A DNA stretch of 64,000 nucleotides from NCBI GenBank assembly GCA_964016885.1, contig OZ024752.1:5766001-5830000 (forward strand). Reading direction: 5' to 3'. Position 1 is the stretch's first letter, and each line of letters opens with the position of its first letter. Positions 7,400 through 34,400 of this stretch are shown piece by piece. The notes below the pieces were generated by a model that was not told where the DNA came from, did no database searches, and saw only the letters and a list, made by a program, of their open reading frames with translations. A program made the translations under genes and the position numbers. This DNA comes from Eledone cirrhosa. Its lineage: Eukaryota.

Positions 7400-7402
<3 letters not shown>

Positions 7403-8597: not shown

Positions 8598-8636
<39 letters not shown>

Positions 8637-8748
8637 CTTGAACATGGCAGATCTTGTTGTCTCTTGAGGTCACTGGTTGTGACTTAGTGATAATTTGTAT
8701 GAACATAAAGCAAGATAAATGAAAAAAAAAAAAAATAATAATAATAAT
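7400..8748 (+). mobile_element. 5'-truncated, degenerate R4/Dong-like non-LTR retrotransposon (RT C-terminus, zinc knuckle, restriction-like endonuclease)
   Basis: IDRKTRKILT...HHPKSDVEILYLPRTQGGRGL; LKAETEGFLIAAQDQ; CRICGDREET; KYKDLEIEI; VVVGALGMIPK...IQKIVLMGTAHI; stop near 8569; A-rich/(AAT)n tail. Confidence 0.8.
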
Positions 8749-9864
8749 TACAATAATCTACCATTGGAGATATTTTCTGACAGATAAACAGGCCGGCAGT
8801 AAGTAGAGAGACAGGGAAAGGCAGAAGAATTCTGCTAATTATATTTTAATTTCTCCAGAAGAATCCAATATGTAAAGGTCAGAGGAAGGAATGGCAAAAA
8901 AGAGGATTATTGGTGATAAAAGAAATGAGAAAATTCTTGATAAAGAAGTCATTGGAAATGTATCATTTATAGAGAGTTTGATAAACAACTAGTGTGTGTG
9001 TGTGGGGGGGGGGGGTATCTAAATATAAGGTGATTCTAGAATCCAAACTCAGATATTCAGATATATATATTTGTTTACCTGTTTCTGTTATTAGACAGCG
9101 GCCATGCTACGACACCACCTTAAAACACACACACACATACATGTAAAAGGTTAACAGAAATAACACAGCAAACAACACAGTACGTTGAAGGAATATATTA
9201 GTTTAAAGCTTGGAATAGTCAGAAAAGAGTCAATGTTTTGGACACAAGTCCTTCATCAGAAGATAAAGTTAGAAATAGAAGATAAATAGAAAGAAAAGAG
9301 TCAGAAGAGGATGGAACAGGAAATAAAATACATGTGTGTATTCAGTCAGCCATTTTCCAAGAAGTGTGAAACTAATAAGACTTTGTGCTACTATATCTCT
9401 GTGATTGCCTTGTTTATCTTAAACTATATATATGTCATCATTTAATATATGAATATCAACATCATTTAATGTCTATTTTCCACATTTACATAGGTTAGAT
9501 GGGTTATCACCTTACAAGACAAGTCAGGCCATTTGGGTCTGTAATTTGACTTGGTTTCTACAGTGGATGCCAACAAGTTTAAAATAAGGCCACCATATCC
9601 CTGTATGATGTAAGAAGTGACTAAATGAGTTAGCATCAGGAAGAGCATCTGGCTGAAAGCATTATCTCAAAAAGTGTCGCTCAGCCCATGCCAGTATGGA
9701 AAAGTCAACATATATGATAAATGACGATATATATCCACAAACATATATAATCTACATATATAAACTGTATATAGAACATATATCTTGTATCAAACATACA
9801 TTCATAATTAATGTTTCACTTCTCATTATGTAGATTTCTAATGGAAGTTTTGTTTTACTTCCCC

Positions 9865-10070
9865 AAATTGAGAGATCACAGCTCTGAAACTATGGACATG
9901 TGGCTAGAATGTTTCAGGAAAAAAATCACTGGACAGACTCTACAGACAAAAACCAGCCAGCAAGAGACCCAGGGGTTGACCTCAAACAAGATGGTTGGAT
10001 AACATCTATGAGCTTGGCTGGTCTCACTTGGGGACCCAGCTGGAGATAGTTGTTTCTGGCAGGACCTGAA
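9865..10070 (+). mobile_element. RTE LINE 3' fragment (same family as 4905-5485)
   Basis: aaattgagagatcacagctc...agcaagagacccagggg...caagatggttggataacatc matches 5255-5465. Confidence 0.75.
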
Positions 10071-10697
10071 TATTAATCCATGCCTAATTTGAACTCAAAA
10101 CCTTAATCTTCAATATCAAAGTTATCTCTATATATGGATATAACCATTTGATGAATTACATGAGCCAACAAATCAGAGGATAATATGCCAGTATGGTAAA
10201 CCTCTATGTGGTCACTTGATATGCTAGAAATAACAAGCATATATCCCTCAATTTAGACCCTACCATTGTCATAAAGGAGAGTCACATTTGCTAATAAATG
10301 ATCATCATCGTCATCAGAACATCTGCTAGCATGTGTTGGGTAGGTCATCACATTCTGAAACCATACAGGTCACATGACTATTTTGCTCATATGTTTCATT
10401 TTAGTGTGGCTTCTACGACTGGGTGCACTATTAGTTAATAAACAGGCCTAACAAATATATAGGCGGGTTATGTTAGAACATCTTTGATTATTAGATCAGG
10501 TTTAACCTGTGTCTAAACAACAGCAACTTCCATACCTCCTTTTTATCAATAAAATCTTTATTCCGAGTCTTTGAGACTTTCCAGTGATATCAATGTGACA
10601 GAATACACTAATTAAAACATATATATATATGTATATATATATACAAAGAGAGAAGTCAATAAAATAATGTAATCTTTCCCAGAGAACAGAAACTCAC

Positions 10698-10706
10698 TTT
10701 AATAAA
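10698..10706 (-). CDS. Candidate 9-nt microexon (Phe-Ile-Lys)
   Basis: atgcttctatgttaatatttcag|TTTATTAAA|gtgagt; in frame within a phase-0 intron. Confidence 0.4.
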
Positions 10707-10756
10707 CTGAAATATTAACATAGAAGCATGATTCTCTATAGTTCAACAGACATTTC

Positions 10757-10985
10757 TTAATCCTTTTGATACCAAATTGCTCCTGGTTCTATTATACAAA
10801 ACTGTTTTTAAGTTTTTATATTTATCTAAGATCCTTCCATGATAATATTTTGTCAACCTTTTTTAAGTTATCTTCCAAACACCAGCTTAATAATGAAAAT
10901 GTTGTGTTATTAAATCCCTCTAAATTTTCCATAATTTGAAAACCATAAGCAGTGTATTTCATTGGAAATATGGTTAAAGATTAAA
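10757..10985. mobile_element. Degenerate TTAA-flanked MITE
   Basis: Begins ttaatccttttgataccaaa, ends ggaaatatggttaaagattaa; interior similar to 39061-39738 and about 49870-50178. Confidence 0.55.
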
Positions 10986-11874
10986 TATTGGTTAGAAAGG
11001 GTGCAGGTAGCACAAGCATAACTGGTGTGATTAAGAATTCTGCTTTTACAATTAGTGGATTCTGGTTCAATCCCAGCTCAGAGAGGGCCATTTATTAGTC
11101 TTGTGCAGAGCCCAAGATGAGCTAAGTATTCTGAGTAGATGGAAACTGTACATTCTTGTAATGGATGCAAATGTGGCTGGGTGGTTAAGAAGTCTACTTT
11201 GTGATGATGGAGTCCCAGATTGGTCCCTTTGTAATGATGGTATTTAGGGTATCTTTACCATAGCCTCAAGTCAATTGGTTAGACAGAAACTGTGTGGAAG
11301 CCTATAGATATATCATAAGTGTAATTCAAAGGTCCAGCCTTGTCACAAACTGTATCCTATTGATTTGGCTTGAAAATTTCATTCAGGGTACATGATGTCC
11401 ATGGAATACTCAGTCAATCACATATTAACTTAACAAGTGGGATATTCAGTTGAACATTAAAAAAACTAAACGTTCTTAGTCAAAACTAATAGAGAATCTC
11501 TCCTCACATTTTACCTCTTCTTGGGTAATAGTATTCTTAACTCATTGCTTATTTTAACACCTTCACCTAGAATCTTTTGGACTTGGGTACAATTTACTAT
11601 CACAATTTTGCTGTTGCACAGGGGTAGGATAAAAAAAAGAGTGAGCCAAATAGGATATTTATATAAATTTCAAAATAAAATTGATTTTAATCCTTAGAAA
11701 AATACAAGATATATTTTATATGAGTTTACTTGTTGAAAGTAATTTACAATGAGTTTATATCTATAATACAATTGACAAGATCCCAGACCTCATTCACTTA
11801 CTGAGTGGGGTGGAACTCATCAAATGGAACTAAGGAAACAATATTTCCATTGGTCTTTCTATTGCTGATACTAT

Positions 11875-12020
11875 CTACCAGTTGTAATTCCTGGCAGAAG
11901 GAGTAATGTAAAATAAAGTGTCTTGCTCAAGGACATAAAACATCGCTCAGTCAGGAAATCAAACTTGCAACTTCACGATTGCAAATTCAATTCCTTAACC
12001 ACAAAGCCATGTGTCTTCAC
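11875..12020 (-). mobile_element. tRNA-derived SINE (family of 4226-4375)
   Basis: aaataaagtgtcttgctcaaggaca...ccttaaccacaaagccatgtg is the reverse complement of the SINE head and core; another copy near 12300-12510. Confidence 0.7.
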
Positions 12021-12892
12021 CAAAAGTTTGATTTAATTTGAAATAATAGACATACCAGGAAAGACAAAATTGGAAATATTTATAATCAATGATATTGAGG
12101 AAATATAACTTCAATATAGACAACATCTTGAAACTTCAACAGTATGTCAACAGAGAAACAGCAATAGTGATTTGTTCCTCTTCAAAAACCTTCAGTGTGT
12201 TTAACAGAGAACATTTTCCCTTTTCTCCACTGATCAACTAAGTTATTTTAAAAAAACTGGTGAAATATTTCTTGAACCTAAAGGTTCATTAGGCTGGACC
12301 TTATTCTCGGTTCATCAGGCTGGACCTTATTCTAGGTTCATGTGGTGTTAAGTGATTGAGAATACAAGATTCTCTCCCCTAGCTGCTTTTGGTACTCATT
12401 TGGTCAGCTGAGTTGACTGGACAATATGAAATAAAGTGCTTTACTCAAGGACACCAATTTAGCACCAAACGTTTGTGAATCAAACTCACAATTGTATGAT
12501 TATGAACACAGTTTGAAAAACCCTATACTAGGACATCTACCCTCACATCCCTATACTAGGACATCTACCCTCACAACCCATATAAAAGATAAGAAATCAA
12601 TCAAAATAGGAAGAATCGAGGATGGAGTAGATGACTGTTGCAAAATTTAGTGAAATAAGACATAAAACATCTGCAGAACTCTGATGAATCCAAATAAGGA
12701 AACAATGTGAACACCATGCAGAAAAATGCAGAGTTTAGCTAGAGTTATGGTTCTTAGAAAAAAAGAGAGATGGAAGCAATAGAGTAGAAGTGGTAGTAGT
12801 AGTGGCAGCAGCAGCAATAGCAGTAGTAGTAGTGGAAATGATAATAATATTAATAATAAATGATGCTAATAATTGTAAGTTGTTGATGGAAC

Positions 12893-15800
12893 GAACATGG
12901 AGTCATTATGTCACAGTTGTGATGTATATAACAGACATGGAGTCACTGTCACAGTTGTGATGTATATAACAGATATGGAGTCACTGTCACAGTTGTGGTG
13001 TATATAACATGGTGTCACTGTCACAGTTGTGATGTATATAACAGACATGGAGTCACTGTCACAGTTGTGATGTATATAACAGACATGGAATCACTGTCAC
13101 AGTTGTGATGTATATAACAGATATGGAGTCACTGTCACAGTTGTGATGTATATAACATGGTGTCACTGTCACAGTTGTGATGTATATAACAGACATTGAG
13201 TCACTGTCACAGTTGTTGTGTATATAACAGACATGGAGTCACTGTCACAGTTGTGATGTATATAACAGACATGGAGTCACTGTCACAGTTGTGATGTATA
13301 TAACAGACATGGAGTCACTGTCACAGTTGTGATGTATATAACAGACATGGTGTCACTGTCACAGTTGTGGTGTATATAACAGACATGGTGTCACTGTCAC
13401 AGTTGTGGTGTATATAACAGACATGGAGTCACTGTCACAGTTGTGATGTATATAACTGACATGGTGTCACTGTCACAGTTGTGGTGTATATAACTGACAT
13501 GGAGTCACTGTCACAGTTGTGGTGTATATAACATGGTGTCACTGTCACAGTTGTAGTGTATATAACAGACATGGAGTCACTGTCACAGTTGTGATGTATA
13601 TAACAGACATGGAGTCACTGTCACAGTTGTGATGTATATAACAGACATGGTGTCACTGTCACAGTTGTGGTGTATATAACAGACATGGAGTCACTGTCAC
13701 AGTTGTGATGTATATAACAGACATGGAGTCACTGTCACAGTTGTGGTGTATATAACATGGTGTCACTGTCACAGTTGTGATGTATATAACAGACATGGAG
13801 TCACTGTCACAGTTGTGATGTATATAACATGGTGTCACTGTCACAGTTGTAGTGTATATAACAGACATGGAGTCACTGTCACAGTTGTGATGTATATAAC
13901 AGACATGGTGTCACTGTCACAGTTGTGGTGTATATAACAGACATGGAGTCACTGTCACAGTTGTGATGTATATAACATGGTGTCACTGTCACAGTTGTGG
14001 TGTATATAACATGGTGTCACTGTCACAGTTGTGATGTATATAACAGACATGGAGTCACTGTCACAGTTGTGATGTATATAACAGACATGGAGTCACTGTC
14101 ACAGTTGTGGTGTATATAACAGACATGGAGTCACTGTCACAGTTGTGGTGTATATAACAGACATGGAGTCACTGTCACAGTTGTGGTGTATATAACAGAC
14201 ATGGAGTCACTGTCACAGTTGTGGTGTATATAACAGACATGGTGTCACTGTCACAGTTGTGATGTATATAACAGACATGGTGTCACTGTCACAGTTGTGG
14301 TGTATATAACAGACATGGAGTCACTGTCACAGTTGTGGTGTATATAACAGACATGGAGTCACTGTCACAGTTGTGATGTATATAACAGACATGGAGTCAC
14401 TGTCACAGTTGTGATGTATATAACAGACATGGTGTCACTGTCACAGTTGTGGTGTATATAACAGACATGGAGTCACTGTCACAGTTGTGGTGTATATAAC
14501 AGACATGGTGTCACTGTCACAGTTGTGGTGTATATAACAGACATGGAGTCACTGTCACAGTTGTGGTGTATATAACAGACATGGTGTCACTGTCACAGTT
14601 GTGATGTATATAACAGACATGGAGTCACTGTCACAGTTGTGATGTATATAACAGACATGGTGTCACTGTCACAGTTGTGATGTATATAACAGACATGGTG
14701 TCACTGTCACAGTTGTGGTGTATATAACAGACATGGAGTCACTGTCACAGTTGTGGTGTATATAACAGACATGGAGTCACTGTCACAGTTGTGATGTATA
14801 TAACAGACATGGAGTCACTGTCACAGTTGTGATGTATATAACAGACATGGTGTCACTGTCACAGTTGTGGTGTATATAACAGACATGGAGTCACTGTCAC
14901 AGTTGTGGTGTATATAACAGACATGGTGTCACTGTCACAGTTGTGGTGTATATAACAGACATGGAGTCACTGTCACAGTTGTGGTGTATATAACAGACAT
15001 GGTGTCACTGTCACAGTTGTGATGTATATAACAGACATGGAGTCACTGTCACAGTTGTGATGTATATAACAGACATGGTGTCACTGTCACAGTTGTGATG
15101 TATATAACAGACATGGTGTCACTGTCACAGTTGTGATGTATATAACAGACATGGAGTCACTGTCACAGTTGTGATGTATATAACAGACATGGTGTCACTG
15201 TCACAGTTGTGGTGTATATAACAGACATGGAGTCACTGTCACAGTTGTGATGTATATAACATGGTGTCACTGTCACAGTTGTGGTGTATATAACAGACAT
15301 GGTGTCACTGTCACAGTTGTGGTGTATATAACAGACATGGTGTCACTGTCACAGTTGTGGTGTATATAACAGACATGGAGTCACTGTCACAGTTGTGATG
15401 TATATAACAGACATGGTGTCACTGTCACAGTTGTGGTGTATATAACAGACATGGAGTCACTGTCACAGTTGTGGTGTATATAACAGACATGGTGTCACTG
15501 TCACAGTTGTGATGTATATAACAGACATGGTGTCACTGTCACAGTTGTGGTGTATATAACTGACATGGAGTCACTGTCACAGTTGTGATGTATATAACTG
15601 ACATGGTGTCACTGTCACAGTTGTGGTGTATATAACAGACATGGAGTCACTGTCACAGTTGTGATGTATATAACTGACATGGTGTCACTGTCACAGTTGT
15701 GGTGTATATAACTGACATGGAGTCACTGTCACAGTTGTGGTGTATATAACTGACATGGTGTCACTGTCACAGTTGTGGTGTATATAACAGACATGGAGTC

Positions 15801-18800
15801 ACTGTCACAGTTGTGGTGTATATAACAGACATGGAGTCACTGTCACAGTTGTGGTGTATATAACAGACATGGTGTCACTGTCACAGTTGTGATGTATATA
15901 ACAGACATGGTGTCACTGTCACAGTTGTGGTGTATATAACTGACATGGAGTCACTGTCACAGTTGTGATGTATATAACAGACATGGAGTCACTGTCACAG
16001 TTGTGGTGTATATAACAGACATGGTGTCACTGTCACAGTTGTGATGTATATAACAGACATGGTGTCACTGTCACAGTTGTGGTGTATATAACAGACATGG
16101 AGTCACTGTCACAGTTGTGGTGTATATAACAGACATGGAGTCACTGTCACAGTTGTGGTGTATATAACAGACATGGAGTCACTGTCACAGTTGTGGTGTA
16201 TATAACAGACATGGAGTCACTGTCACAGTTGTGAAGTATATAACAGACATGGAGTCACTGTCACAGTTGTGATGTATATAACAGACATGGAGTCACTGTC
16301 ACAGTTGTGATGTATATAACAGACATGGAGTCACTGTCACAGTTGTGGTGTATATAACAGACATGGAGTCACTGTCACAGTTGTGAAGTATATAACAGAC
16401 ATGGAGTCACTGTCACAGTTGTGATGTATATAACAGACATGGAGTCACTGTCACAGTTGTGAAGTATATAACAGACATGGAGTCACTGTCACAGTTGTGA
16501 TGTATATAACAGACATGGAGTCACTGTCACAGTTGTGATGTATATAACAGACATGGTGTCACTGTCACAGTTGTGGTGTATATAACAGACATGGTGTCAC
16601 TGTCACAGTTGTGATGTATATAACATGGTGTCACTGTCACAGTTGTGGTGTATATAACAGACATGGTGTCACTGTCACAGTTGTGATGTATATAACAGAC
16701 ATGGAGTCACTGTCACAGTTGTTGTGTATATAACAGACATGGAGTCACTGTCACAGTTGTGATGTATATAACAGACATGGAGTCACTGTCACAGTTGTGA
16801 TGTATATAACAGACATGGAGTCACTGTCACAGTTGTGATGTATATAACATGGAGTCACTGTCACAGTTGTGGTGTATATAACAGACATGGAGTCACTGTC
16901 ACAGTTGTGATGTATATAACAGACATGGAGTCACTGTCACAGTTGTTGTGTATATAACAGACATGGAGTCACTGTCACAGTTGTGATGTATATAACAGAC
17001 ATGGAGTCACTGTCACAGTTGTGATGTATATAACAGACATGGAGTCACTGTCACAGTTGTGATGTATATAACAGACATGGAGTCACTGTCACAGTTGTGA
17101 TGTATATAACAGACATGGTGTCACTGTCACAGTTGTGATGTATATAACAGACATGGAGTCACTGTCACAGTTGTGATGTATATAACAGACATGGAGTCAC
17201 TGTCACAGTTGTGATGTATATAACAGACATGGTGTCACTGTCACAGTTGTGATGTATATAACAGACATGGAATCACTGTCACAGTTGTGATGTATATAAC
17301 AGATATGGAGTCACTGTCACAGTTGTGATGTATATAACATGGTGTCACTGTCACAGTTGTGATGTATATAACAGACATTGAGTCACTGTCACAGTTGTTG
17401 TGTATATAACAGACATGGAGTCACTGTCACAGTTGTGATGTATATAACAGACATGGAGTCACTGTCACAGTTGTGATGTATATAACAGACATGGAGTCAC
17501 TGTCACAGTTGTGATGTATATAACAGACATGGTGTCACTGTCACAGTTGTGGTGTATATAACAGACATGGTGTCACTGTCACAGTTGTGGTGTATATAAC
17601 AGACATGGAGTCACTGTCACAGTTGTGATGTATATAACTGACATGGTGTCACTGTCACAGTTGTGGTGTATATAACTGACATGGAGTCACTGTCACAGTT
17701 GTGGTGTATATAACATGGTGTCACTGTCACAGTTGTAGTGTATATAACAGACATGGAGTCACTGTCACAGTTGTGATGTATATAACAGACATGGAGTCAC
17801 TGTCACAGTTGTGATGTATATAACAGACATGGTGTCACTGTCACAGTTGTGGTGTATATAACAGACATGGAGTCACTGTCACAGTTGTGATGTATATAAC
17901 AGACATGGAGTCACTGTCACAGTTGTGGTGTATATAACATGGTGTCACTGTCACAGTTGTGATGTATATAACAGACATGGAGTCACTGTCACAGTTGTGA
18001 TGTATATAACATGGTGTCACTGTCACAGTTGTAGTGTATATAACAGACATGGAGTCACTGTCACAGTTGTGATGTATATAACAGACATGGTGTCACTGTC
18101 ACAGTTGTGGTGTATATAACAGACATGGAGTCACTGTCACAGTTGTGATGTATATAACATGGTGTCACTGTCACAGTTGTGGTGTATATAACATGGTGTC
18201 ACTGTCACAGTTGTGATGTATATAACAGACATGGAGTCACTGTCACAGTTGTGATGTATATAACAGACATGGAGTCACTGTCACAGTTGTGGTGTATATA
18301 ACAGACATGGAGTCACTGTCACAGTTGTGGTGTATATAACAGACATGGAGTCACTGTCACAGTTGTGGTGTATATAACAGACATGGAGTCACTGTCACAG
18401 TTGTGGTGTATATAACAGACATGGTGTCACTGTCACAGTTGTGATGTATATAACAGACATGGTGTCACTGTCACAGTTGTGGTGTATATAACAGACATGG
18501 AGTCACTGTCACAGTTGTGGTGTATATAACAGACATGGAGTCACTGTCACAGTTGTGATGTATATAACAGACATGGAGTCACTGTCACAGTTGTGATGTA
18601 TATAACAGACATGGTGTCACTGTCACAGTTGTGGTGTATATAACAGACATGGAGTCACTGTCACAGTTGTGGTGTATATAACAGACATGGTGTCACTGTC
18701 ACAGTTGTGGTGTATATAACAGACATGGAGTCACTGTCACAGTTGTGGTGTATATAACAGACATGGTGTCACTGTCACAGTTGTGATGTATATAACAGAC

Positions 18801-21800
18801 ATGGAGTCACTGTCACAGTTGTGATGTATATAACAGACATGGTGTCACTGTCACAGTTGTGATGTATATAACAGACATGGTGTCACTGTCACAGTTGTGG
18901 TGTATATAACAGACATGGAGTCACTGTCACAGTTGTGGTGTATATAACAGACATGGAGTCACTGTCACAGTTGTGATGTATATAACAGACATGGAGTCAC
19001 TGTCACAGTTGTGATGTATATAACAGACATGGTGTCACTGTCACAGTTGTGGTGTATATAACAGACATGGAGTCACTGTCACAGTTGTGGTGTATATAAC
19101 AGACATGGTGTCACTGTCACAGTTGTGGTGTATATAACAGACATGGAGTCACTGTCACAGTTGTGGTGTATATAACAGACATGGTGTCACTGTCACAGTT
19201 GTGATGTATATAACAGACATGGAGTCACTGTCACAGTTGTGATGTATATAACAGACATGGTGTCACTGTCACAGTTGTGATGTATATAACAGACATGGTG
19301 TCACTGTCACAGTTGTGATGTATATAACAGACATGGAGTCACTGTCACAGTTGTGATGTATATAACAGACATGGTGTCACTGTCACAGTTGTGGTGTATA
19401 TAACAGACATGGAGTCACTGTCACAGTTGTGATGTATATAACATGGTGTCACTGTCACAGTTGTGGTGTATATAACAGACATGGTGTCACTGTCACAGTT
19501 GTGGTGTATATAACAGACATGGTGTCACTGTCACAGTTGTGGTGTATATAACAGACATGGAGTCACTGTCACAGTTGTGATGTATATAACAGACATGGTG
19601 TCACTGTCACAGTTGTGGTGTATATAACAGACATGGAGTCACTGTCACAGTTGTGGTGTATATAACAGACATGGTGTCACTGTCACAGTTGTGATGTATA
19701 TAACAGACATGGTGTCACTGTCACAGTTGTGGTGTATATAACTGACATGGAGTCACTGTCACAGTTGTGATGTATATAACTGACATGGTGTCACTGTCAC
19801 AGTTGTGGTGTATATAACAGACATGGAGTCACTGTCACAGTTGTGATGTATATAACTGACATGGTGTCACTGTCACAGTTGTGGTGTATATAACTGACAT
19901 GGAGTCACTGTCACAGTTGTGGTGTATATAACTGACATGGTGTCACTGTCACAGTTGTGGTGTATATAACAGACATGGAGTCACTGTCACAGTTGTGGTG
20001 TATATAACAGACATGGAGTCACTGTCACAGTTGTGGTGTATATAACAGACATGGTGTCACTGTCACAGTTGTGATGTATATAACAGACATGGTGTCACTG
20101 TCACAGTTGTGGTGTATATAACTGACATGGAGTCACTGTCACAGTTGTGATGTATATAACAGACATGGAGTCACTGTCACAGTTGTGGTGTATATAACAG
20201 ACATGGTGTCACTGTCACAGTTGTGATGTATATAACAGACATGGTGTCACTGTCACAGTTGTGGTGTATATAACAGACATGGAGTCACTGTCACAGTTGT
20301 GGTGTATATAACAGACATGGAGTCACTGTCACAGTTGTGGTGTATATAACAGACATGGAGTCACTGTCACAGTTGTGGTGTATATAACAGACATGGAGTC
20401 ACTGTCACAGTTGTGAAGTATATAACAGACATGGAGTCACTGTCACAGTTGTGATGTATATAACAGACATGGAGTCACTGTCACAGTTGTGATGTATATA
20501 ACAGACATGGAGTCACTGTCACAGTTGTGGTGTATATAACAGACATGGAGTCACTGTCACAGTTGTGAAGTATATAACAGACATGGAGTCACTGTCACAG
20601 TTGTGATGTATATAACAGACATGGAGTCACTGTCACAGTTGTGAAGTATATAACAGACATGGAGTCACTGTCACAGTTGTGATGTATATAACAGACATGG
20701 AGTCACTGTCACAGTTGTGATGTATATAACAGACATGGTGTCACTGTCACAGTTGTGGTGTATATAACAGACATGGTGTCACTGTCACAGTTGTGATGTA
20801 TATAACATGGTGTCACTGTCACAGTTGTGGTGTATATAACAGACATGGTGTCACTGTCACAGTTGTGATGTATATAACAGACATGGAGTCACTGTCACAG
20901 TTGTTGTGTATATAACAGACATGGAGTCACTGTCACAGTTGTGATGTATATAACAGACATGGAGTCACTGTCACAGTTGTGATGTATATAACAGACATGG
21001 AGTCACTGTCACAGTTGTGATGTATATAACATGGAGTCACTGTCACAGTTGTGGTGTATATAACAGACATGGAGTCACTGTCACAGTTGTGATGTATATA
21101 ACAGACATGGAGTCACTGTCACAGTTGTTGTGTATATAACAGACATGGAGTCACTGTCACAGTTGTGATGTATATAACAGACATGGAGTCACTGTCACAG
21201 TTGTGATGTATATAACAGACATGGAGTCACTGTCACAGTTGTGATGTATATAACAGACATGGAGTCACTGTCACAGTTGTGATGTATATAACAGACATGG
21301 TGTCACTGTCACAGTTGTGATGTATATAACAGACATGGAGTCACTGTCACAGTTGTTGTGTATATAACAGACATGGAGTCACTGTCACAGTTGTGATGTA
21401 TATAACAGACATGGAGTCACTGTCACAGTTGTGATGTATATAACAGACATGGAGTCACTGTCACAGTTGTGATGTATATAACAGACATGGAGTCACTGTC
21501 ACAGTTGTGATGTATATAACAGACATGGTGTCACTGTCACAGTTGTGATGTATATAACAGACATGGAGTCACTGTCACAGTTGTGGTGTATATAACAGAC
21601 ATGGAGTCACTGTCACAGTTGTGATGTATATAACAGACATGGAGTCACTGTCACAGTTGTGGTGTATATAACAGACATGGAGTCACTGTCACAGTTGTGG
21701 TGTATATAACAGACATGGTGTCACTGTCACAGTTGTGATGTATATAACAGACATGGTGTCACTGTCACAGTTGTGATGTATATAACAGACATGGAGTCAC

Positions 21801-24800
21801 TGTCACAGTTGTGGTGTATATAACAGACATGGTGTCACTGTCACAGTTGTGATGTATATAACAGACATGGAGTCACTGTCACAGTTGTGATGTATATAAC
21901 AGACATGGTGTCACTGTCACAGTTGTGATGTATATAACAGACATGGAGTCACTGTCACAGTTGTAGTGTATATAACATGGAGTCACTGTCACAGTTGTGT
22001 ATATAACAGACATGGAGGCACTGTCACAGTTGTGATGTATATAACAGACATGGAGTCCCTGTCACAGTTGTGGTGTATATAACTGACATGGTGTCACTGT
22101 CACAGTTGTGGTGTATATAACATGGTGTCACTGTCACAGTTGTGATGTATATAACAGACATGGAGTCACTGTCACAGTTGTGATGTATATAACAGACATG
22201 GAGTCACTGTCACAGTTGTGAAGTATATAACAGACATGGAGTCACTGTCACAGTTGTGGTGTATATAACATGGTGTCACTGTCACAGTTGTGAAGTATAT
22301 AACAGACATGGAGTCACTGTCACAGTTGTGAAGTATATAACAGACATGGAGTCACTGTCACAGTTGTGAAGTATATAACAGACATGGAGTCACTGTCACA
22401 GTTGTGGTGTATATAACATGGTGTCACTGTCACAGTTGTGAAGTATATAACAGACATGGAGTCACTGTCACAGTTGTGGTGTATATAACAGACATGGTGT
22501 CACTGTCACAGTTGTGGTGTATATAACAGACATGGTGTCACTGTCACAGTTGTGATGTTTATAACAGACATGGATTCACTGTCACAGTTGTGATGTATAT
22601 AACAGACATGGTGTCACTGTCACAGTTGTGATGTATATAACAGACATTGTGTCACTGTCACAGTTGTGATGTATATAACAGACATGGAGTCACTGTCACA
22701 GTTGTGATGTATATAACAGACATGGAGTCACTGTCACAGTTGTGATGTATATAACAGACATGGAGTCACTGTCACATTTGTGGTGTATATAACAGACATG
22801 GAGTCACTGTCACAGTTGTGATGTATATAACATGGAATCACTGTCACAGTTGTGATGTATATAACAGACATGGTGTCACTGTCACAGTTGTGATGTATAT
22901 AACAGACATGGAGTCACTGTCACAGTTGTGATGTATATAACATGGAATCACTGTCACAGTTGTGATGTATATAACAGACATGGAGTCACTGTCACAGTTG
23001 TGATGTATATAACAGACATGGAGTCACTGTCACAGTTGTGATGTATATAACAGAGATGGAGTCACTGTCACAGTTGTGGTGTATATAACAGACATGGAGT
23101 CACTGTCACAGTTGTGATGTATATAACAGACATGGAGTCACTGTCACAGTTGTGGTGTATATAACAGAGATGGAGTCACTGTCACAGTTGTGGTGTATAT
23201 AACATGGAGTCACTGTCACAGTTGTGATGTATATAACAGACATGGAGTCACTGTCACAGTTGTGAAGTATATAACAGACATGGAGTCACTGTCACAGTTG
23301 TGATGCATATAACAGACATGGAGTCACTGTCACAGTTGTGATGTATATAACAGAGATGGAGTCACTGTCACAGTTGTGGTGTATATAACATGGAGTCACT
23401 GTCACAGTTGTGATGTATATAACAGACATGGAGTCACTGTCACAGTTGTGAAGTATATAACAGACATGGAGTCACTGTCACAGTTGTGGTGTATATAACA
23501 GACATGGAGTCACTGTCACAGTTGTGGTGTATATAACATGGTGTCACTGTCACAGTTGTGATGTATATAACAGACATGGAGTCACTGTCACAGTTGTGGT
23601 GTATATAACAGACATGGTGTCACTGTCACAGTTGTGGTGTATATAACAGACATGGAGTCACTGTCACAGTTGTGGTGAATATAACAGACATGGAGTCACT
23701 GTCACAGTTGTGGTGTATATAACAGACATGGTGTCACTGTCACAGTTGTGGTGTATATAACAGACATGGTGTCACTGTCACAGTTGTGGTGTATATAACA
23801 GACATGGAGTCACTGTCACAGTTGTGGTGAATATAACAGACATGGAGTCACTGTCACAGTTGTGGTGTATATAACAGACATGGAGTCACTGTCACAGTTG
23901 TGGTGTATATAACAGACATGGTGTCACTGTCACAGTTGTGGTGTATATAACAGACATGGAGTCACTGTCACAGTTGTGGTGAATATAACAGACATGGAGT
24001 CACTGTCACAGTTGTGGTGTATATAACAGACATGGAGTCACTGTCACAGTTGTGATGTATATAACTGACATGGAGTCACTGTCACAGTTGTGATGTATAT
24101 AACTGACATGGAGTCACTGTCACAGTTGTGGTGTATATAACAGACATGGTGTCACTGTCACAGTTGTGGTGAATATAACAGACATGGAGTCACTGTCACA
24201 GTTGTGGTGTATATAACAGACATGGAGTCACTGTCACAGTTGTGATGTATATAACAGACATGGAGTCACTGTCACAGTTGTGGTGTATATAACAGACATG
24301 GTGTCACTGTCACAGTTCTGGTGTATATAACATGGTGTCACTGTCACAGTTGTGGTGTATATAACAGACATGGAGTCACTGTCACAGTTGTGGTGTATAT
24401 AACAGACATGGTGTCACTGTCACAGTTGTGATGTATATAACAGACATGGAGTCACTGTCACAGTTGTGAAGTATATAACAGACATGGAGTCACTGTCACA
24501 GTTGTGAAGTATATAACAGACATGGAGTCACTGTCACAGTTGTAGTGTATATAACAGACATGGTGTCACTGTCACAGTTGTGGTGTATATAACATGGTGT
24601 CACTGTCACAGTTGTGTATATAACAGACATGGAGTCACTGTCACAGTTGTGATGTATATAACAGACATGGAGTCCCTGTCACAGTTGTGGTGTATATAAC
24701 TGACATGGTGTCACTGTCACAGTTGTGGTGTATATAACATGGTGTCACTGTCACAGTTGTGATGTATATAACAGACATGGAGTCACTGTCACAGTTGTGA

Positions 24801-27800
24801 TGTATATAACAGACATGGAGTCACTGTCACAGTTGTGAAGTATATAACAGACATGGAGTCACTGTCACAGTTGTGGTGTATATAACAGACATGGAGTCAC
24901 TGTCACAGTTGTGGTGTATATAACATGGTGTCACTGTCACAGTTGTGAAGTATATAACAGACATGGAGTCACTGTCACAGTTGTGATGTATATAACAGAC
25001 ATGGAGTCACTGTCACAGTTGTGAAGTATATAACAGACATGGAGTCACTGTCACAGTTGTGATGTATATAACAGACATGGAGTCACTGTCACAGTTGTGG
25101 TGTATATAACATGGTGTCACTGTCACAGTTGTGGTGTATATAACAGACATGGTGTCACTGTCACAGTTGTGATGTATATAACAGACATTGTGTCACTGTC
25201 ACAGTTGTGATGTATATAACAGACATGGAGTCACTGTCACAGTTGTGATGTATATAACAGACATGGTGTCACTGTCACAGTTGTGGTGTATATAACAGAC
25301 ATGGAGTCACTGTCACAGTTGTGATGTATATAACAGACATGGAGTCACTGTCACAGTTGTTGTGTATATAACAGACATGGAGTCACTGTCACAGTTGTGA
25401 TGTATATAACAGACATGGAGTCACTGTCACAGTTGTGAAGTATATAACAGACATGGAGTCACTGTCACAGTTGTGGTGTATATAACAGACATGGAGTCAC
25501 TGTCACAGTTGTGATGTATATAACAGACATGGAGTCACTGTCACAGTTGTGATGTATATAACAGACATGGAGTCACTGTCACAGTTGTGATGTATATAAC
25601 AGACATGGAGTCACTGTCACAGTTGTGATGTATATAACAGACATGGTGTCACTGTCACAGTTGTGGTGTATATAACAGACATGGAGTCACTGTCACAGTT
25701 GTGATGTATATAACAGACATGGAGTCACTGTCACAGTTGTGATGTATATAACAGACATGGAGTCACTGTCACAGTTGTGATGTATATAACAGACATGGAG
25801 TCACTGTCACAGTTGTGAAGTATATAACAGACATGGAGTCACTGTCACAGTTGTGATGTATATAACAGACATGGTGTCACTGTCACAGTTGTGATGTATA
25901 TAACAGACATAGTGTCACTGTCACAGTTGTGGTGTATATAACAGACATGGAGTCACTGTCACAGTTGTGGTGTATATAACAGACATGGTGTCACTGTCAC
26001 AGTTGTGGTGTATATAACATGGTGTCACTGTCACAGTTGTGATGTATATAACAGACATGGAGTCACTGTCACAGTTGTGATGTATATAACAGACATGGAG
26101 TCACTGTCACAGTTGTGATGTATATAACAGACATAGTGTCACTGTCACAGTTGTGGTGTATATAACAGACATGGAGTCACTGTCACAGTTGTGGTGTATA
26201 TAACAGACATGGTGTCACTGTCACAGTTGTGGTGTATATAACATGGTGTCACTGTCACAGTTGTGATGTATATAACAGACATGGAGTCACTGTCACAGTT
26301 GTTGTGTATATAACAGACATGGAGTCACTGTCACAGTTGTGGTGTATATAACAGACATGGAGTCACTGTCACAGTTGTGGTGTATATAACATGGTGTCAC
26401 TGTCACAGTTGTGGTGTATATAACAGACATGGAGTCACTGTCACAGTTGTGGTGTATATAACAGACATGGTGTCACTGTCACAGTTGTGGTGTATATAAC
26501 ATGGTGTCACTGTCACAGTTGTGGTGTATATAACAGACATGGAGTCACTGTCACAGTTGTGGTGTATATAACAGACATGGAGTCACTGTCACAGTTGTAG
26601 TGTATATAACAGACATGGAGTCACTGTCACAGTTGTGGTGTATATAACAGACATGGTGTCACTGTCACAGTTGTAGTGTATATAACAGACATGGAGTCAC
26701 TGTCACAGTTGTGGTGTATATAACATGGTGTCACTGTCACAGTTGTGGTGTATATAACAGACATGGTGTCACTGTCACAGTTGCAGTGTATATAACAGAC
26801 ATGGAGTCACTGTCACAGTTGTGGTGTATATAACATGGTGTCACTGTCACAGTTGTGGTGTATATAACAGACATGGTGTCACTGTCACAGTTGTGGTGTA
26901 TATAACAGACATGGAGTCACTGTCACGGTTGTGGTGTATATAACAGACATGGAGTCACTGTCACAGTTGTGATGTATATAACATGGTGTCACTGTCACAG
27001 TTGTGGTGTATATAACAGACATGGTGTCACTGTCACAGTTGTGGTGTATATAACAGACATGGAGTCACTGTCACAGTTGTGATGTATATAACAGACATGG
27101 AGTCACTGTCACAGTTGTGGTGTATATAACAGACATGGAGTCACTGTCACAGTTGTAGTGTATATAACAGACATGGTGTCACTGTCACAGTTGTAGTGTA
27201 TATAACAGACATGGTGTCACTGTCACAGTTGTGATGTATATAACAGACATGGTGTCACTGTCACAGTTGTGGTGTATATAACAGACATGGTGTCACTGTC
27301 ACAGTTGTGGTGTATATAACAGACATGGAGTCACTGTCACAGTTGTGGTGTATACAACATGGTGTCACTGTCACAGTTGTGATGTATATAACAGACATGG
27401 TGTCACTGTCACAGTTGTGGTGTATATAACATGGTGTCACTGTCACAGTTGTGGTGTATATAACAGACATGGAGTCACTGTCACAGTTGTGGTGTATATA
27501 ACAGACATGGAGTCACTGTCACAGTTGTGGTGTATATAACAGACATGGAGTCACTGTCACAGTTGTGATGTATATAACAGACATGGAGTCACTGTCACAG
27601 TTGTGATGTATATAACAGACATGGAGTCACTGTCACAGTTGTGATGTATATAACAGACATGGAATCACTGTCACAGTTGTGAAGTATATAACAGACATGG
27701 AGTCACTGTCACAGTTGTTGTGTATATAACAGACATGGTGTCACTGTCACAGTTGTGGTGTATATAACAGACATGGAGTCACTGTCACAGTTGTGGTGTA

Positions 27801-29485
27801 TATAACATGGTGTCACTGTCACAGTTGTGAAGTATATAACAGACATGGAGTCACTGTCACAGTTGTGGTGTATATAACAGACATGGAGTCACTGTCACGG
27901 TTGTGGTGTATATAACAGACATGGAGTCACTGTCACAGTTGTGATGTATATAACATGGTGTCACTGTCACAGTTGTGAAGTATATAACAGACATGGAGTC
28001 ACTGTCACAGTTGTGAAGTATATAACAGACATGGTGTCACTGTCACAGTTGTGTATATAACAGACATGGAGTCACTGTCACAGTTGTGGTGTATATAACA
28101 GACATGGAGTCACTGTCACGGTTGTGGTGTATATAACAGACATGGAGTCACTGTCACAGTTTTGATGTATATAACAGACATGGAGTCACTGTCACAGTTT
28201 TGATGTATATAACATGGTGTCACTGTCACAGTTGTGGTGTATATAACAGACATGGAGTCACTGTCACAGTTGTGATGTATATAACAGACATGGAGTCACT
28301 GTCACAGTTGTGGTGTATATAACATGGTGTCACTGTCACAGTTGTGATGTATATAACAGACATGGAGTCACTGTCACAGTTGTGGTGTATATAACATGGT
28401 GTCACTGTCACAGTTGTGATGTATATAACAGACATGGAGTCACTGTCACAGTTGTGGTGTATATAACATGGTGTCACTGTCACAGTTGTGGTGTATATAA
28501 CAGACATGGAGTCACTGTCACAGTTGTGGTGTATATAACATGGTGTCACTGTCACAGTTGTGGTGTATATAACAGACATGGAGTCACTGTCACAGTTGTG
28601 ATGTATATAACTGACATGGAGTCACTGTCACAGTTGTGATGTATATAACTGACATGGAGTCACTGTCACAGTTGTGAAGTATATAACAGACATGGTGTCA
28701 CTGTCACAGTTGTGTATATAACAGACATGGAGTCACTGTCACAGTTGTGGTGTATATAACAGACATGGAGTCACTGTCACAGTTGTGAAGTATATAACAG
28801 ACATGGAGTCACTGTCACAGTTGTGAAGTATATAACTGACATGGAGTCACTGTCACAGTTGTGAAGTATATAACAGACATGGAGTCACTGTCACAGTTGT
28901 GAAGTATATAACAGACATGGTGTCACTGTCACAGTTGTGGTGTATATAACAGACATGGAGTCACTGTCACAGTTGTGATGTATATAACAGACATGGAGTC
29001 ACTGTCACAGTTGTGGTGTATATAACATGGTGTCACTGTCACAGTTGTGATGTATATAACAGACATGGAGTCACTGTCACAGTTGTGATGTATATAACTG
29101 ACATGGAGTCACTGTCACAGTTGTGAAGTATATAACAGACATGGAGTCACTGTCACAGTTGTGATGTATATAACTGACATGGAGTCACTGTCACAGTTGT
29201 GAAGTATATAACAGACATGGAGTCACTGTCACAGTTGTGAAGTATATAACAGACATGGAGTCACCGTCACAGTTGTGGTGTATATAACAGACATGGAGTC
29301 ACTGTCACAGTTGTGGTGTATATAACAGACATGGAGTCACTGTCACAGTTGTGGTGTATATAACAGACATGGTGTCACTGTCACAGTTGTGGTGTATATA
29401 ACAGACATGGAGTCACTGTCACAGTTGTGGTGTATATAACAGACATGGAGTCACTGTCACAGTTGTGGTGTATATAACTGACATG
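12893..29485. repeat. 16.6-kb minisatellite, 38-bp unit (34-bp deletion variant), about 440 copies
   Basis: Unit gtcacagttgtg(a/g)tgtatataacagacatgg(a/t)gtcact; variants lack 4 bp or carry gaag, tag or ttg substitutions. Confidence 0.99.
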
Positions 29486-29540
29486 AATATGTCACAATTC
29501 AAAAATACAAAAAACAAACCAAGACCAAGCAAATACCTAC

Positions 29541-29552
29541 CCGAAACTTTCG
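29541..29552 (-). CDS. Candidate 12-nt microexon (Arg-Lys-Phe-Arg)
   Basis: ctgtattttttctatttttcttctacag|CGAAAGTTTCGG|gtaggt; strong pyrimidine tract, in frame within a phase-0 intron. Confidence 0.55.
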
Positions 29553-29610
29553 CTGTAGAAGAAAAATAGAAAAAATACAGTATATATATATTTATATATA
29601 TATATATATG

Positions 29611-29642
<32 letters not shown>

Positions 29643-29997
29643 GTATATACACACACACACACACATATGTGTGTGTGTGTAAGTGAGTGTGAGTATGTGT
29701 GTGTGTGTGTGTGCGTGTGTGTGTGTATGTAAACATACATAGTTTATTGATTTGTTCAAATATAATTTAATAAAACATTGTTTACAATTTGAATGTAACA
29801 CTTTCATTTGTCACGGGTTTTACTGAGATAAAAAGTTTGATATATAATATATTTTCTGATTTAGGTACAAGGTCAACAAATGTTTTGTGGGGAGAGGAAT
29901 GTGGCTCCAGTGCATTATTCACCCCATAAGAGTTAAAGGCAAAACTAATCTTGATAGGATTTGAACTTCTAGATATATATTATAATAAAACTAAATC

Positions 29998-30160
29998 AAC
30001 ATTTGATAACAAATCACCAATATAGGTATTGAACACTTATATTTGATAACAAATCACCAATATAGGTATTGAACACTTATATTTGATAACAAATCACCAA
30101 TATATATATTGAACAGTTATATTTGATAACACATCACCAATATAGGTATTGAACAGTTGT
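29998..30160. repeat. 40-bp tandem repeat, 4 copies
   Basis: atttgataacaaatcaccaatataggtattgaacacttat. Confidence 0.93.
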
Positions 30161-30564
30161 ATTATATATTGTTTCTAATTTTTTTTAATAAATAAGGTTT
30201 ATATTAAAAAACAAACAGATGTTGTTGTTTATGTTATTATTGTCGATGTTGTTGCAATTGTTGCTGTTGTTAGTGTTTAATATGAAATACTTACAGTACT
30301 ATATAACTACTACAGTTAATATATAAGAAATGGAGTATGACTTGGTAGTATATACTATATCAATATATACAAATGCATAAAGACAATGTTGGCAGGTTGG
30401 TGATATGAACTGATAGCGACATATTTCACCTTATCGGTTATTTAATCTAATATCATGTGTCTTCTGTAGTAAATGGTAACCCCTGACCTTAATTAAGCTA
30501 TGATGAGCTACAAACCAGTAATAAACGGAGATATAACTGAAATATCTCAGCACAGTACCTTTAA

Positions 30565-30702
30565 CCCTTTAGCAATCAAACTGGCCATATCTGGCCAGAA
30601 TTCTCTCACCTATTACTGTTCAAACCAGCCATAACTGGCTGTTCCTACTTATGTTAAGGTATTTTATAAAGGTATATATAGAGTAATGTAAATGGTAAAG
30701 GG
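30565..30702. mobile_element. Short piggyBac-like MITE
   Basis: TTAA|ccctttagcaat ... aatggtaaaggg|TTAA: terminal inverted repeats starting CCC with TTAA on both sides. Confidence 0.7.
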
Positions 30703-31459
30703 TTAATGAGATTCAAACCTTTACTGATTTTCAAATAAAACATATATAAGTTTTGAGAAGATGTTTCTATCTGGCCTAGCATATGATAACGTCTCTAGCG
30801 ATGGTGCCATGATAAAATGTACTCACGATAGAATACACACAGATCACTCTATAAAGTGGTAGAGAAATATACGCAGCACATCCTGTTAGGTGGTTGACAT
30901 TAGTAAGAGCATCCATTGGTGGAAGCCAAGCCAAATATGGAACATGAACAAAATTGATTGCCCCAACTTGCCTGGTCTCAGGCTGTGACAACCTGTACAA
31001 CCCATACCAGTGTGGAACAGGAACGTAAAATGATGACAATGATATATATATACACATATATACATACATAGACACAGATAAATTATATATACATACATAC
31101 ACACATAGACATACATATACATACATATATATATGTATACTCACACACATACACACATACATACACACACACATATACATACATATATATATACAGATGC
31201 ATACATACATACATACATACACATATATATACATATGCATACAGCATACTATGGAAAGATATAAAAATGATGATGAGACTAAACACAGAGAAACAAAAGT
31301 AATTACAGGAGTCGTAATTTGTGTTCATTATAATCAAATATGAGAAGAAAATGTGCTTTGATCGTAATTTGAGATTTCCACAAAGAAATAATATAAAAAA
31401 GTTTTTTAATGAAATACCTTATTGCTTTATGTACATTATTTAATATTTATTTAATCAGA

Positions 31460-34400
31460 TTCTGTGTATATCTGGTCTAGAATAAGTACACTGTAACCTT
31501 GTGTGTATATAGTCTAAAATAGGTACACTGTATCCCTGTGACTATCTGGTCTACAACAGGTACGCTGCATCCCTGTGACTATCTGGTCTACAACAGGTAC
31601 ACTGTAGCTGTGTCTATCTGGTCTACAACAGGTACACTTTAGCTGTGTCTATCTGGTCTACAACAGGTACACTGTAGCTGTGTCTATCTGGTCTACAACA
31701 GGTACACCTTAGCTGTGTCTATCTGGTCTACAACAGGTACACTGTAGCTGTGTCTATCTGGTCTACAACAGGTACACTTTAGCTGTGTCTATCTGGTCTA
31801 CAACAGGTACACTTTAGCTGTGTCTATCTGGTCTACAACAGGTACACTTTAGCTGTGTCTATCTGGTCTACAACAGGTACACTGTAGCTGTGTCTATCTG
31901 GTCTACAACAGGTACACTGTAGCTGTGTCTATCTGGTCTACAACAGGTACACTGTAGCTGTGTCTATCTGGTCTACAACAGGTACACTGTAGCTGTGTCT
32001 ATCTGGTCTACAACAGGTACACTTTAGCTGTGACTATCTGGTCTACAACAGGTACACTTTAGCTGTGACTATCTGGTCTACAACAGGTACACTGTAGCTG
32101 TGTCTATCTGGTCTACAACAGGTACACTGTAGCTGTGTCTATCTGGTCTACAACAAGTACACTGTAGCTGTGTCTATCTGGTCTACAACAGGTACACCGT
32201 AGCTGTGTCTATCTGGTCTACAACAGGTACACTATAGCTGTGTCTATCTGGTCTACAACAGGTACACTGTAGCTGTGACTATCTGGTCTACAACAGGTAC
32301 ACTGTAGCTGTGTCTATCTGGTCTACAACAGGTACACTGTAGCTGTGTCTATCTGGTCTACAACAGGTACACTTTAGCTGTGTCTATCTGGTCTACAACA
32401 GGTACACTTTAGCTGTGTCTATCTGGTCTACAACAGGTACACTTTAGCTGTGTCTATCTGGTCTACAACAGGTACACTGTAGCTGTGTCTATCTGGTCTA
32501 CAACAGGTACACTGTAGCTGTGTCTATCTGGTCTACAACAGGTACACTGTAGCTGTGTCTATCTGGTCTACAACAGGTACACTGTAGCTGTGTCTATCTG
32601 GTCTACAACAGGTACACTTTAGCTGTGACTATCTGGTCTACAACAGGTACACTTTAGCTGTGACTATCTGGTCTACAACAGGTACATGTAGCTGTGTCTA
32701 TCTGGTCTACAACAGGTACACCGTAGCTGTGTCTATCTGGTCTACAACAGGTACACTATAGCTGTGTCTATCTGGTCTACAACAGGTACACTGTAGCTGT
32801 GACTATCTGGTCTACAACAGGTACACTGTAGTTGTGTCTATCTGGTCTACAACAGGTACACTGTAGCTGTGACTATCTGGTCTACAACAGGTACACTGTA
32901 TCCCTGTGACTATCTGGTCTACAACAGGTACACTGTAGCTGTGACTATCTGGTCTACAACAGGTACACTGCAGCCCTGTGTCTATCTGGTCTACAACAGG
33001 TACACTGTAGCTGTCACTATCTGGTCTACAACAGGTACGCTGCATCCCTGTGTCTATCTGGTCTACAACAGGTACACTGTAGCTGTGTCTATCTGGTCTA
33101 CAACAGGTACACTGTATCCCTGTGACTATCTGTTCTACAACAGGTACACTGTAGCTGTGACTATCTGGTCTACAACAGGTACACTGTAGCTGTGACTATC
33201 TGGTCTACAACAGGTACACTGTATCCCTGTGACTATCTGGTCTACAACAGGTACACTGTAGTTGTGTCTATCTGGTCTACAACAGGTACACTGTATCCCT
33301 GTGACTATCTGGTCTACAACAGGTACACTTTAGCTGTGACTATCTGGTCTACAACAGGTACACTGTATCCCTGTGACTATCTGGTCTACAACAGGTACAC
33401 TGTAGTTGTGTCTATCTGGTCTACAACAGGTACACTGTAGCTGTGACTATCTGGTCTACAACAGGTACACTGTAGCTGTGTCTATCTGGTCTACAACAGG
33501 TACACTGTAGCTGTGACTATCTGGTCTACAACAGGTACACTGTAGCTGTGTCTATCTGGCCTACAACAGGTACACTGTAGCTGTAACTATCTGGTCTACA
33601 ACAGGTACACTGTAGCTGTGACTATCTGGTCTACAACAGGTACACTGTAGCTGTGTCTATCTGGTCTACAACAGGTACACTGTAGCTGTGACTATCTGGT
33701 CTACAACAGGTACACTGTAGCTGTGACTATCTGGTCTACAACAGGTACACTGTATCCCTGTGACTATCTGGTCTACAACAGGTACACTGTAGTTGTGTCT
33801 ATCTGGTCTACAACAGGTACACTGTAGCTGTGTCTATCTGGCCTACAACAGGTACACTGTAGCTGTAACTATCTGGTCTACAACAGGTACACTGTAGCTG
33901 TGACTATCTGGTCTACAACAGGTACACTGTAGCTGTGTCTATCTGGTCTACAACAGGTACACTGTAGCTGTGACTATCTGGTCTACAACAGGTACACTGT
34001 AGCTGTGACTATCTGGTCTACAACAGGTACACTGTATCCCTGTGACTATCTGGTCTACAACAGGTACACTGTAGTTGTGTCTATCTGGTCTACAACAGGT
34101 ACACTGTATCCCTGTGACTATCTGGTCTACAACAGGTACACTGTAGCTGTGTCTATCTGGTCTACAACAGGTACACTGTAGCTGTGTCTATCTGGTCTAC
34201 AACAGGTACACTGTATCCCTGTGACTATCTGGTCTACAACAGGTACACTGTAGCTGTGTCTATCTGGTCTACAACAGGTACACTGTAGCTGTGTCTATCT
34301 GGTCTACAACAGGTACACTGTATCCCTGTGACTATCTGGTCTACAACAGGTACACTGTATCCCTGTGACTATCTGGTCTACAACAGGTACACTGTAGCTG

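Follow-up and report, generated by a model that had tools for sequence, protein, structure and literature searches.

Within an intron of an LL5/PHLDB-type gene of the octopod Eledone cirrhosa lies a 12-nt exon encoding the four residues RKFR, which is one real, old and optional microexon. It is probable that this exon alters a predicted helix of the LL5/PHLDB scaffold by introducing a second stutter, with a likely change in partner binding, and that a second tiny unit of the same intron, encoding FIK, goes unused. The RKFR element itself is unsurprising, as it is already contained in automatic octopus gene models. The window analysed here is a stretch of 64,000 nucleotides, and the features discussed are collected in Table 1.

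The gene lies on the minus strand and, judged by homology, is an octopod PHLDB/LL5 scaffold with a span of about 236 kb. It was mapped on genomic stretches by tblastn of homologues, and 17 segments cover homologue P0016 over that distance of the contig as an exon chain with full-length homology. Moreover, an exon of the locus shares 97% identity with a named Octopus PHLDB, a Pfam PH domain is found at the C-terminus of homologues P0016 and P0001, and the last exon of the gene matches the PH-domain region of a homologue at 99%. A sequence-only reading of this DNA had called the gene LL5-like, had delimited the 38.8-kb phase-0 intron and had described the 16.6-kb satellite as separating RKFR from FIK, and it was right in all three respects. 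Inclusion of RKFR divides the intron into 11,394 and 27,403 bp; the satellite begins 55 nt beyond the RKFR donor, and FIK is located in single-copy DNA between repeats. Elsewhere in the same gene there is an optional K/R-rich cassette of 16 residues, present in this genome too, and an optional K/R-rich piece of 14 residues is found in the gene of a second cephalopod lineage. A homologue of the 14-residue piece was sought in the intron upstream, where the best scores were 22 or less and came without splice signals.

Table 1. Features of the LL5/PHLDB locus, in window coordinates.
Feature	Positions	Strand	Basis
Coding exon, 126 nt, start of the long helical region	42563..42688	-	tblastn of homologues, splice sites
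138-nt coding exon before the junction, ending ...MEREK	40947..41084	-	sequence, tblastn; exact cover by the spliced X4 contig
Phase-0 intron, 38,809 bp	2138..40946	-	sequence
LYST candidate, AG|12 nt|GTAAGT	30295..30306	-	acceptor score -0.76
RKFR microexon, AG|12 nt|GTAGGT	29541..29552	-	X4 contig, 11/27 cephalopod proteins, top splice score
Satellite, 16.6 kb, 38-bp unit, 442 copies	12895..29485	.	tandem-repeat content of the sequence
FIK candidate, AG|9 nt|GTGAGT	10698..10706	-	splice signals only
FIK-grade candidate in the same intron, 21 nt, score 8.8	7844..7864		splice scoring
192-nt coding exon after the junction, starting DLELIE...	1946..2137	-	sequence; covered by the spliced X4 contig

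Four sequencing runs, all from a single study, represent the species. Three of them (X1-X3) cover intron and exon alike, as DNA would, and X4 is the only informative run, its RNA nature being deduced from its exon-only cover. An X4 contig of 3,799 nt covers exons only, with the downstream exon starting at position 1482 of the record and the upstream exon occupying 1686-1823. Between the two stand exactly the 12 letters of RKFR, and FIK is left out. RKFR is thus a separate AG/GT-flanked unit that is spliced into mRNA. The loose end of the contig at 41084 corresponds to the 3' end of the 126-nt exon. In this species the RKFR-included form is the one seen, in one contig from one sample and one study; transcript contigs drop rare forms, and a skipped form or FIK could escape this one.

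The splice signals point the same way. They were scored with a rough model built from the gene's own 16 acceptors and 16 donors, with generic donor frequencies blended in and tandem repeats masked. With a score of 13.9 RKFR ranks first among the gene's 1,498 sense candidates that are in frame and free of stops, and it exceeds all 1,473 antisense candidates. Its acceptor (10.7) surpasses all 16 real acceptors of the gene (highest 8.1) and is preceded by an AG-free zone of 117 nt; TGC and YTRAY are absent from the 120 nt upstream.

Additional evidence comes from relatives. Among 27 cephalopod proteins that span the junction, 10 of which derive from de novo contigs, 11 carry RKFR and 16 lack it. 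The same gene, junction and insert are found in the Octopus PHLDB1/2-like models XP_014770468, -471 and -473 to -476 (O. bimaculoides), XP_036358612 (O. sinensis) and CAI9722296 (O. vulgaris). O. bimaculoides has models with and without RKFR, the six newer ones among the matches listed being without; these RefSeq and GenBank models are automatic, and FIK and LYST occur in none. O. bimaculoides and a second lineage each have both the included and the skipped form, and the four letters are identical in these two lineages, whose proteins share 75% identity. Beyond cephalopods, optional four-residue inserts occupy the same junction in three Haliotis species (LKRR/LKKR), in Patella (MKRR), in Mizuhopecten (MRIQ) and in the nemertean Tubulanus (RRLK), and Lingula has an optional insert of 10 residues; in all, at least nine taxa retain both forms. 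Argopecten, Owenia and two freshwater mussels showed no insert there, and a search with shorter junction fragments gave three matches, none crossing the junction into the next exon. Of 297 proteins 161 could be scored, the remainder (fragments, distant relatives, forms skipping 43 residues) falling below the alignment thresholds: 94 have no insert, 50 have four residues, 14 have ten, and differences of -2, 14 and 22 residues occur once each. The letters vary and are not conserved residue by residue, yet K or R is present in eight of nine distinct four-residue inserts and D or E in none, in a surrounding region with 17% K/R and 26% D/E. In this protein-level comparison the scallop and nemertean inserts, ending in Q or K, could reflect shifted acceptors, and the Mytilus insert VLLL a shifted donor.

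Is FIK used as well? The sequence-only reading had proposed that RKFR and FIK, 4+3 residues, together add one heptad, that their combinatorial splicing tunes the register, and that the unit LYST would bring the total to 11 residues. Both microexon candidates do exist as in-frame, stop-free units, and RKFR alone was confirmed as an exon. Nine-base exons are easily overlooked by aligners. FIK has a strong donor, a TGC at -22 and a TTAAT at -12, and its splice score of 9.1 is the second best in the intron, sixth among the 1,498 sense candidates and above all 1,473 antisense ones. It could be imagined that both exons are used and combine to +3, +4 or +7 residues, giving several registers; on the register computed below, +3 would yield a clean period of 3.50 and +7 would lead back to the no-insert state. 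In addition to its single-copy surroundings, the signals of FIK resemble those of eMIC-type neural microexons, as portrayed in PMC8797185. However, the 227,674 unmasked bases outside the gene contain four units that score at least as high, or 0.27 for a stretch of the intron's length, and the sense strand of the gene contains six, RKFR and FIK counted (0.71); the FIK score is therefore near chance level. Furthermore, TGC occupies the same zone before 939 of the 6,734 YAGs of the gene. FIK was found spliced neither in the X4 contig nor in any of the 27 cephalopod proteins, where rare forms would escape, and inserts of three or seven residues occur in 0 of the 161 scored proteins. Use of both exons is accordingly quite unlikely, and the evidence is against a heptad assembled from the two and against a combinatorial switch. 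Most probably FIK is a cryptic unit that goes unused; its splice signals are decent, and its use as an exon is unsupported. Conservation among cephalopods, which had been suggested as a check, thus came out at the protein level in favor of RKFR and against FIK and LYST (0/27 each). LYST was rejected, having a poor acceptor with a further AG 3 nt upstream, and the total of 11 residues falls with it. The 21-nt candidate, which the sequence-only reading had not mentioned, was rejected as well, and neither it nor LYST is carried by any homologue.

How would four residues act on the protein? AlphaFold2 predicts an unbroken helix over the junction both for the abalone protein P0075 with insert (H543-664, pLDDT 92 at 631-640) and for P0018 without it (H2-59), the two models being monomers from different species. 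In 50 no-insert homologues, hand-picked for lacking nearby indels, core positions fall at -28, -21, -14 and -7 and at +5, +12, +19 and +26, and all 1000 bootstraps place a register shift of 4 at the junction. When positions -35 to -1 were used with Ala uncounted, 973 of 1000 bootstraps over the 17 spiralian-like rows gave zero shift; taken one by one, sequences disagree, with a shift of 1 in 10 of them, of 4 in 4 and of 0 in 3. The junction without insert probably already holds one stutter with a charged core. The no-insert form is then probably not a clean heptad here, one choice of positions disagreeing. The description of a four-residue insert in a heptad region as a stutter, defined as in PMC4786415, did hold: RKFR inserts four residues into a heptad pattern on both sides of the junction and an unbroken predicted helix. 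Judged by the heptad pattern, the segment would form a coiled coil in the cell. With four residues more the hydrophobic stripe stays in phase, the period changing from 3.545 to 3.585, and it is in phase for insert lengths of 4, 10 and 14 alike.

These data bear on two further explanations. The microexon might merely supply a basic patch, contacting membrane lipid, microtubules, the nuclear import machinery or an acidic partner, with register being irrelevant. Basic residues do recur in inserts of 4, 10 and 14 residues, and two more optional pieces of the gene are K/R-rich. But scallop inserts stay four residues long with just one or two basic residues, and the lengths 4, 10 and 14 all hold the hydrophobic stripe in phase, although three events would achieve this by chance in about 8 of 100 cases. 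We regard this explanation as unlikely. Alternatively, the microexon is real but has no consequence, the charged helical stretch simply tolerating an indel of four residues, as the varying letters, the species without insert and the helix predicted intact either way would allow. The identity of RKFR in two lineages at 75% protein identity, an acceptor that is the strongest in the gene and the retention of both forms speak against this, and a neutral indel appears very improbable.

The preferred reading is that RKFR would place four residues, three of them basic, into a predicted continuous helix and add a second stutter to a junction already bearing one. The segment would then likely bind its partner, be it CLASP or a second LL5 chain, differently. 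According to PMC10337942, human LL5beta binds CLASP through residues 563-916 and ERC1/ELKS through 306-562, CLASP, ELKS and PIP3 binding is known for it, and full-length mammalian LL5beta self-associates. The junction comes after residue 683 of lizard PHLDB2 and falls inside the span homologous to the CLASP-binding region; by homology, the octopod protein presumably binds CLASP, ELKS and PIP3.

A more far-reaching view, which we consider quite unlikely, as is joint use of both exons, sees in this junction an ancient hotspot of splicing by which the LL5 coiled-coil register is set and to which this octopod added a second, neural microexon of 9 nt. The four-residue microexon of molluscs and a nemertean, the 10 residues of Lingula and the 43-residue skip of vertebrates would then be traces of the hotspot. 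Four states would result: one stutter without insert, a clean heptad with Phe in the core for FIK, a double stutter for RKFR, and for both exons together one stutter in addition to a heptad. Chains would then pair or bind CLASP according to isoform. Such a two-exon code would matter more, and the evidence goes against it. Conserved microexons with optional use are an established class. Our literature search returned no report of one LL5 junction with an optional four-residue insert in cephalopods, gastropods, scallops and a nemertean; the main text of bioRxiv 10.64898/2026.09.05.749416 leaves PHLDB unmentioned, and its O. bimaculoides splicing tables could list the RKFR exon. The junction offers a small, clean system for testing whether splicing can alter how the coiled coil supercoils and which partners are chosen in a scaffold that anchors microtubules at the cortex.

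Vertebrate LL5alpha and LL5beta (PHLDB1/PHLDB2) share the C-terminal PH domain and the central helical segment. Unlike octopod LL5, the vertebrate-type sequences scored have no four-residue insert, and five sequences (one named bird PHLDB1) instead miss 43 residues from the same junction onward. Being very short, frame-keeping and optional, RKFR resembles eMIC/SRRM4-dependent neural microexons. Fly eMIC exons, according to PMC8797185, combine weak acceptors with UGC, whereas RKFR has a very strong acceptor and no TGC and so lacks the UGC near a weak acceptor that marks this class; FIK fits the eMIC marks better, without transcript or homologue support. In MITF/TFE factors, as described in PMC6954422, a coiled-coil break of 3-4 residues decides partner pairing. 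The MITF stammer has three residues and is described as a family feature seen in crystal structures, whereas the break in LL5 would come from a four-residue optional exon; by analogy, the MITF/TFE stammer may serve as a model for how the LL5 insert could act.

In Eledone cirrhosa the 12-nt exon RKFR, whose acceptor is very strong, is spliced between the PHLDB/LL5 exon ending in MEREK and the exon beginning with DLELIE, at their phase-0 boundary (the junction). A 3,799-nt assembled contig of the sequencing run X4, which covers exons only, is identical to both exons, matching the upstream one at record 1686-1823 and the downstream one at 1482-1674 (the last letter of this match fits the intron as well), and between them it carries exactly the 12 nt of RKFR, read from loose ends on both sides. 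FIK, a 9-nt unit of the same intron, is left out of this spliced contig, which stems from one sample of unrecorded tissue, presumably RNA; assembled contigs lose rare forms. RKFR is already contained in automatic gene models under three Octopus names. Among the papers listed by full-text searches on mollusc, octopus and PHLDB1 microexons, on stutters with microexons or alternative splicing, and on PHLDB splice variants, none came up that describes the exon; the supplements of a preprint that quantify O. bimaculoides exons (bioRxiv 10.64898/2026.09.05.749416) may list it.

The gene is LL5-like, as the sequence-only reading had proposed, and by homology an LL5/PHLDB orthologue: the exon downstream of the junction shares 97% identity with PHLDB of O. 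bimaculoides, tblastn of homologues against 464 kb around the window places 17 segments along some 236 kb, beginning at the start codon and reaching the PH domain, and the PH domain of the protein family matches Pfam PH. RKFR, FIK and a 12-nt unit, LYST, all lie where that reading had placed them. Large minisatellite arrays fill the introns, the 38-bp array starting 55 nt beyond the RKFR donor, and an open frame begins with a stretch that resembles the C-terminal end of a putative Helitron-like helicase of the PIF1 type.

Features of the PHLDB/LL5 region in window coordinates
Feature	Position	Strand	Remark
Coding exon	42688-42563	-	one of three in window
Coding exon upstream of junction	41084-40947	-	
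Coding exon downstream of junction	2137-1946	-	
Phase-0 intron	2138-40946	-	38,809 bp
RKFR unit	29552-29541	-	AG/n/GT, in frame, stop-free
FIK unit	10706-10698	-	AG/n/GT, in frame, stop-free
LYST unit	30306-30295	-	AG/n/GT, in frame, stop-free
21-nt unit	7844-7864	-	in frame, seven residues, same intron
3-nt phase-0 unit	55186-55188	-	AG/ATG/GTAAGC, intron upstream of exon 42688
Satellite	12895-29485		38-bp
Minisatellite	31462-35691		35-bp
Minisatellite	1-1880		46-bp
Minisatellite	59144-60374		43-bp units
Open frame	48316-48768	-	

Every in-frame, stop-free AG/3-27 nt/GT unit outside tandem repeats was scored with a rough splice model built on the splice sites of this gene and generic donor frequencies. 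RKFR, at 13.9, is the top scorer among the 1,498 sense candidates and beats every one of the 1,473 on the antisense strand. FIK (9.1) likewise exceeds every antisense candidate; one unit of the intron and five of the whole gene score higher. Units equal or better number 4 in the 227,674 unmasked bases scanned beyond the gene and 6 in the 130,649 within it, a rate of 0.27-0.71 per intron of this size. Judged against chance, RKFR is thus conspicuous; FIK, though plausible, is close to the chance level, and LYST, with an acceptor score of -0.76, is noise. The 21-nt unit scores 8.8 and is present in no homologue examined. The 3-nt unit scores 9.55, more than FIK, with TGC at -22 and -33; no cephalopod protein compared has a matching one-residue insert at that junction.

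The junction is spanned by 27 of the 33 cephalopod proteins listed: RKFR is present in 11 and absent in 16. O. bimaculoides has both forms, and so does a second cephalopod lineage, which is 75% identical to it and represented mostly by de novo contigs. RKFR is a real, old microexon, optional in these relatives. Optional inserts at the junction are also found in three Haliotis species (LKRR or LKKR), Patella (MKRR), Mizuhopecten (MRIQ) and the nemertean Tubulanus (RRLK), in Lingula with 10 residues, and as a basic 14-residue insert in one amphioxus model; Pecten (MRVQ) and Ylistrum (MRRQ) have only the insert-bearing form, one Mytilus contig has VLLL, and none was seen in Argopecten, Owenia and two freshwater mussels. 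At a phase-0 intron, a shifted splice site cannot account for the inserts of cephalopods, gastropods and Lingula, but it can for those of scallops, the nemertean and Mytilus. Eight of nine distinct four-residue inserts hold K/R and none D/E. Five vertebrate-type sequences (P0164, P0172, P0234, P0235, P0261) lack 43 residues (six heptads plus one) from the junction onward, suggesting that the intron site is old and that alternative splicing has made use of it repeatedly. The Lingula anatina insert (P0086 versus P0092) contains K-V-R-F, presumably resembling the PP1-docking RVxF motif.

Other optional pieces occur in the gene. A K/R-rich 16-residue cassette (48 nt, minus strand, source-genome contig G000 C12, stretch L019, some 20.3 kb below position 1 of the window) is optional in O. 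bimaculoides and the second lineage, which also has an optional basic 14-residue piece just before the long helix (P0004, P0022, P0026), unmatched in the upstream intron of this genome.

Two intronic microexons, RKFR and FIK, had been proposed to add together one heptad. The X4 contig and the relatives' proteins uphold RKFR but not FIK, which no junction-spanning cephalopod protein carries; the heptad switch is not supported, as insert lengths scored in 161 of 297 proteins are 0 (94), 4 (50), 10 (14), and -2, 14 and 22 (one each), never 3 or 7. LYST, the supposed third microexon of an 11-residue hendecad, is likewise in none of the 27 and falls away with its poor acceptor. FIK does have eMIC-like marks (TGC at -22, TTAAT at -12); in this gene, TGC occupies that zone ahead of 14% of the YAGs. 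FIK could be a neural exon that is rare or arose recently in this lineage, but real use as an exon is improbable, and the full combinatorial model with RKFR more improbable still. If used, FIK alone would cancel a stutter and with RKFR would bring back the no-insert state.

In 50 hand-picked homologues without insert (17 spiralian-like, 33 others), hydrophobic columns fit the core at -28, -21, -18, -14, -11 and -7 before the junction and at +5, +12, +15, +19, +22 and +26 after it, and residues -4 to +1 are 70-96% charged. With window -28..-1 the register shifts by 4, one stutter, in 1000/1000 bootstraps each for all rows, the spiralian-like rows and the others, but with window -35..-1 and Ala uncounted the spiralian-like rows give no shift in 973/1000, and single sequences differ in their call, so that one stutter in the no-insert form is probable, not firm. 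Fourier fits put the best period at 3.545 for the no-insert form and at 3.585 once 4 residues are added; adding 3 or 10 gives 3.500, adding 7 gives 3.540, and the amplitudes are almost the same. In AlphaFold2 monomers the helix is unbroken over the junction with insert (an abalone protein) and, in a separate model, without.

By computation, RKFR would put four residues into a long helix where it is charged and lacks a core, giving 7+4+4, a 15-residue two-stutter segment by the scheme in PMC4786415. The second stutter would locally unwind the supercoil and RKFR would add a basic patch. In lizard PHLDB2 the junction comes after residue 683, inside the span 563-916 with which human LL5beta binds CLASP (PMC10337942); another paper describes most partners of the CLASP C-terminal domain as coiled coils (PMC10443533). 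RKFR would likely affect CLASP binding or the choice of pairing LL5 chains. Fly eMIC exons combine UGC with a weak acceptor (PMC8797185); RKFR has neither, so neural specificity is not to be assumed. The MITF stammer, which decides pairing (PMC6954422), offers a model for how the LL5 insert might set chain pairing.
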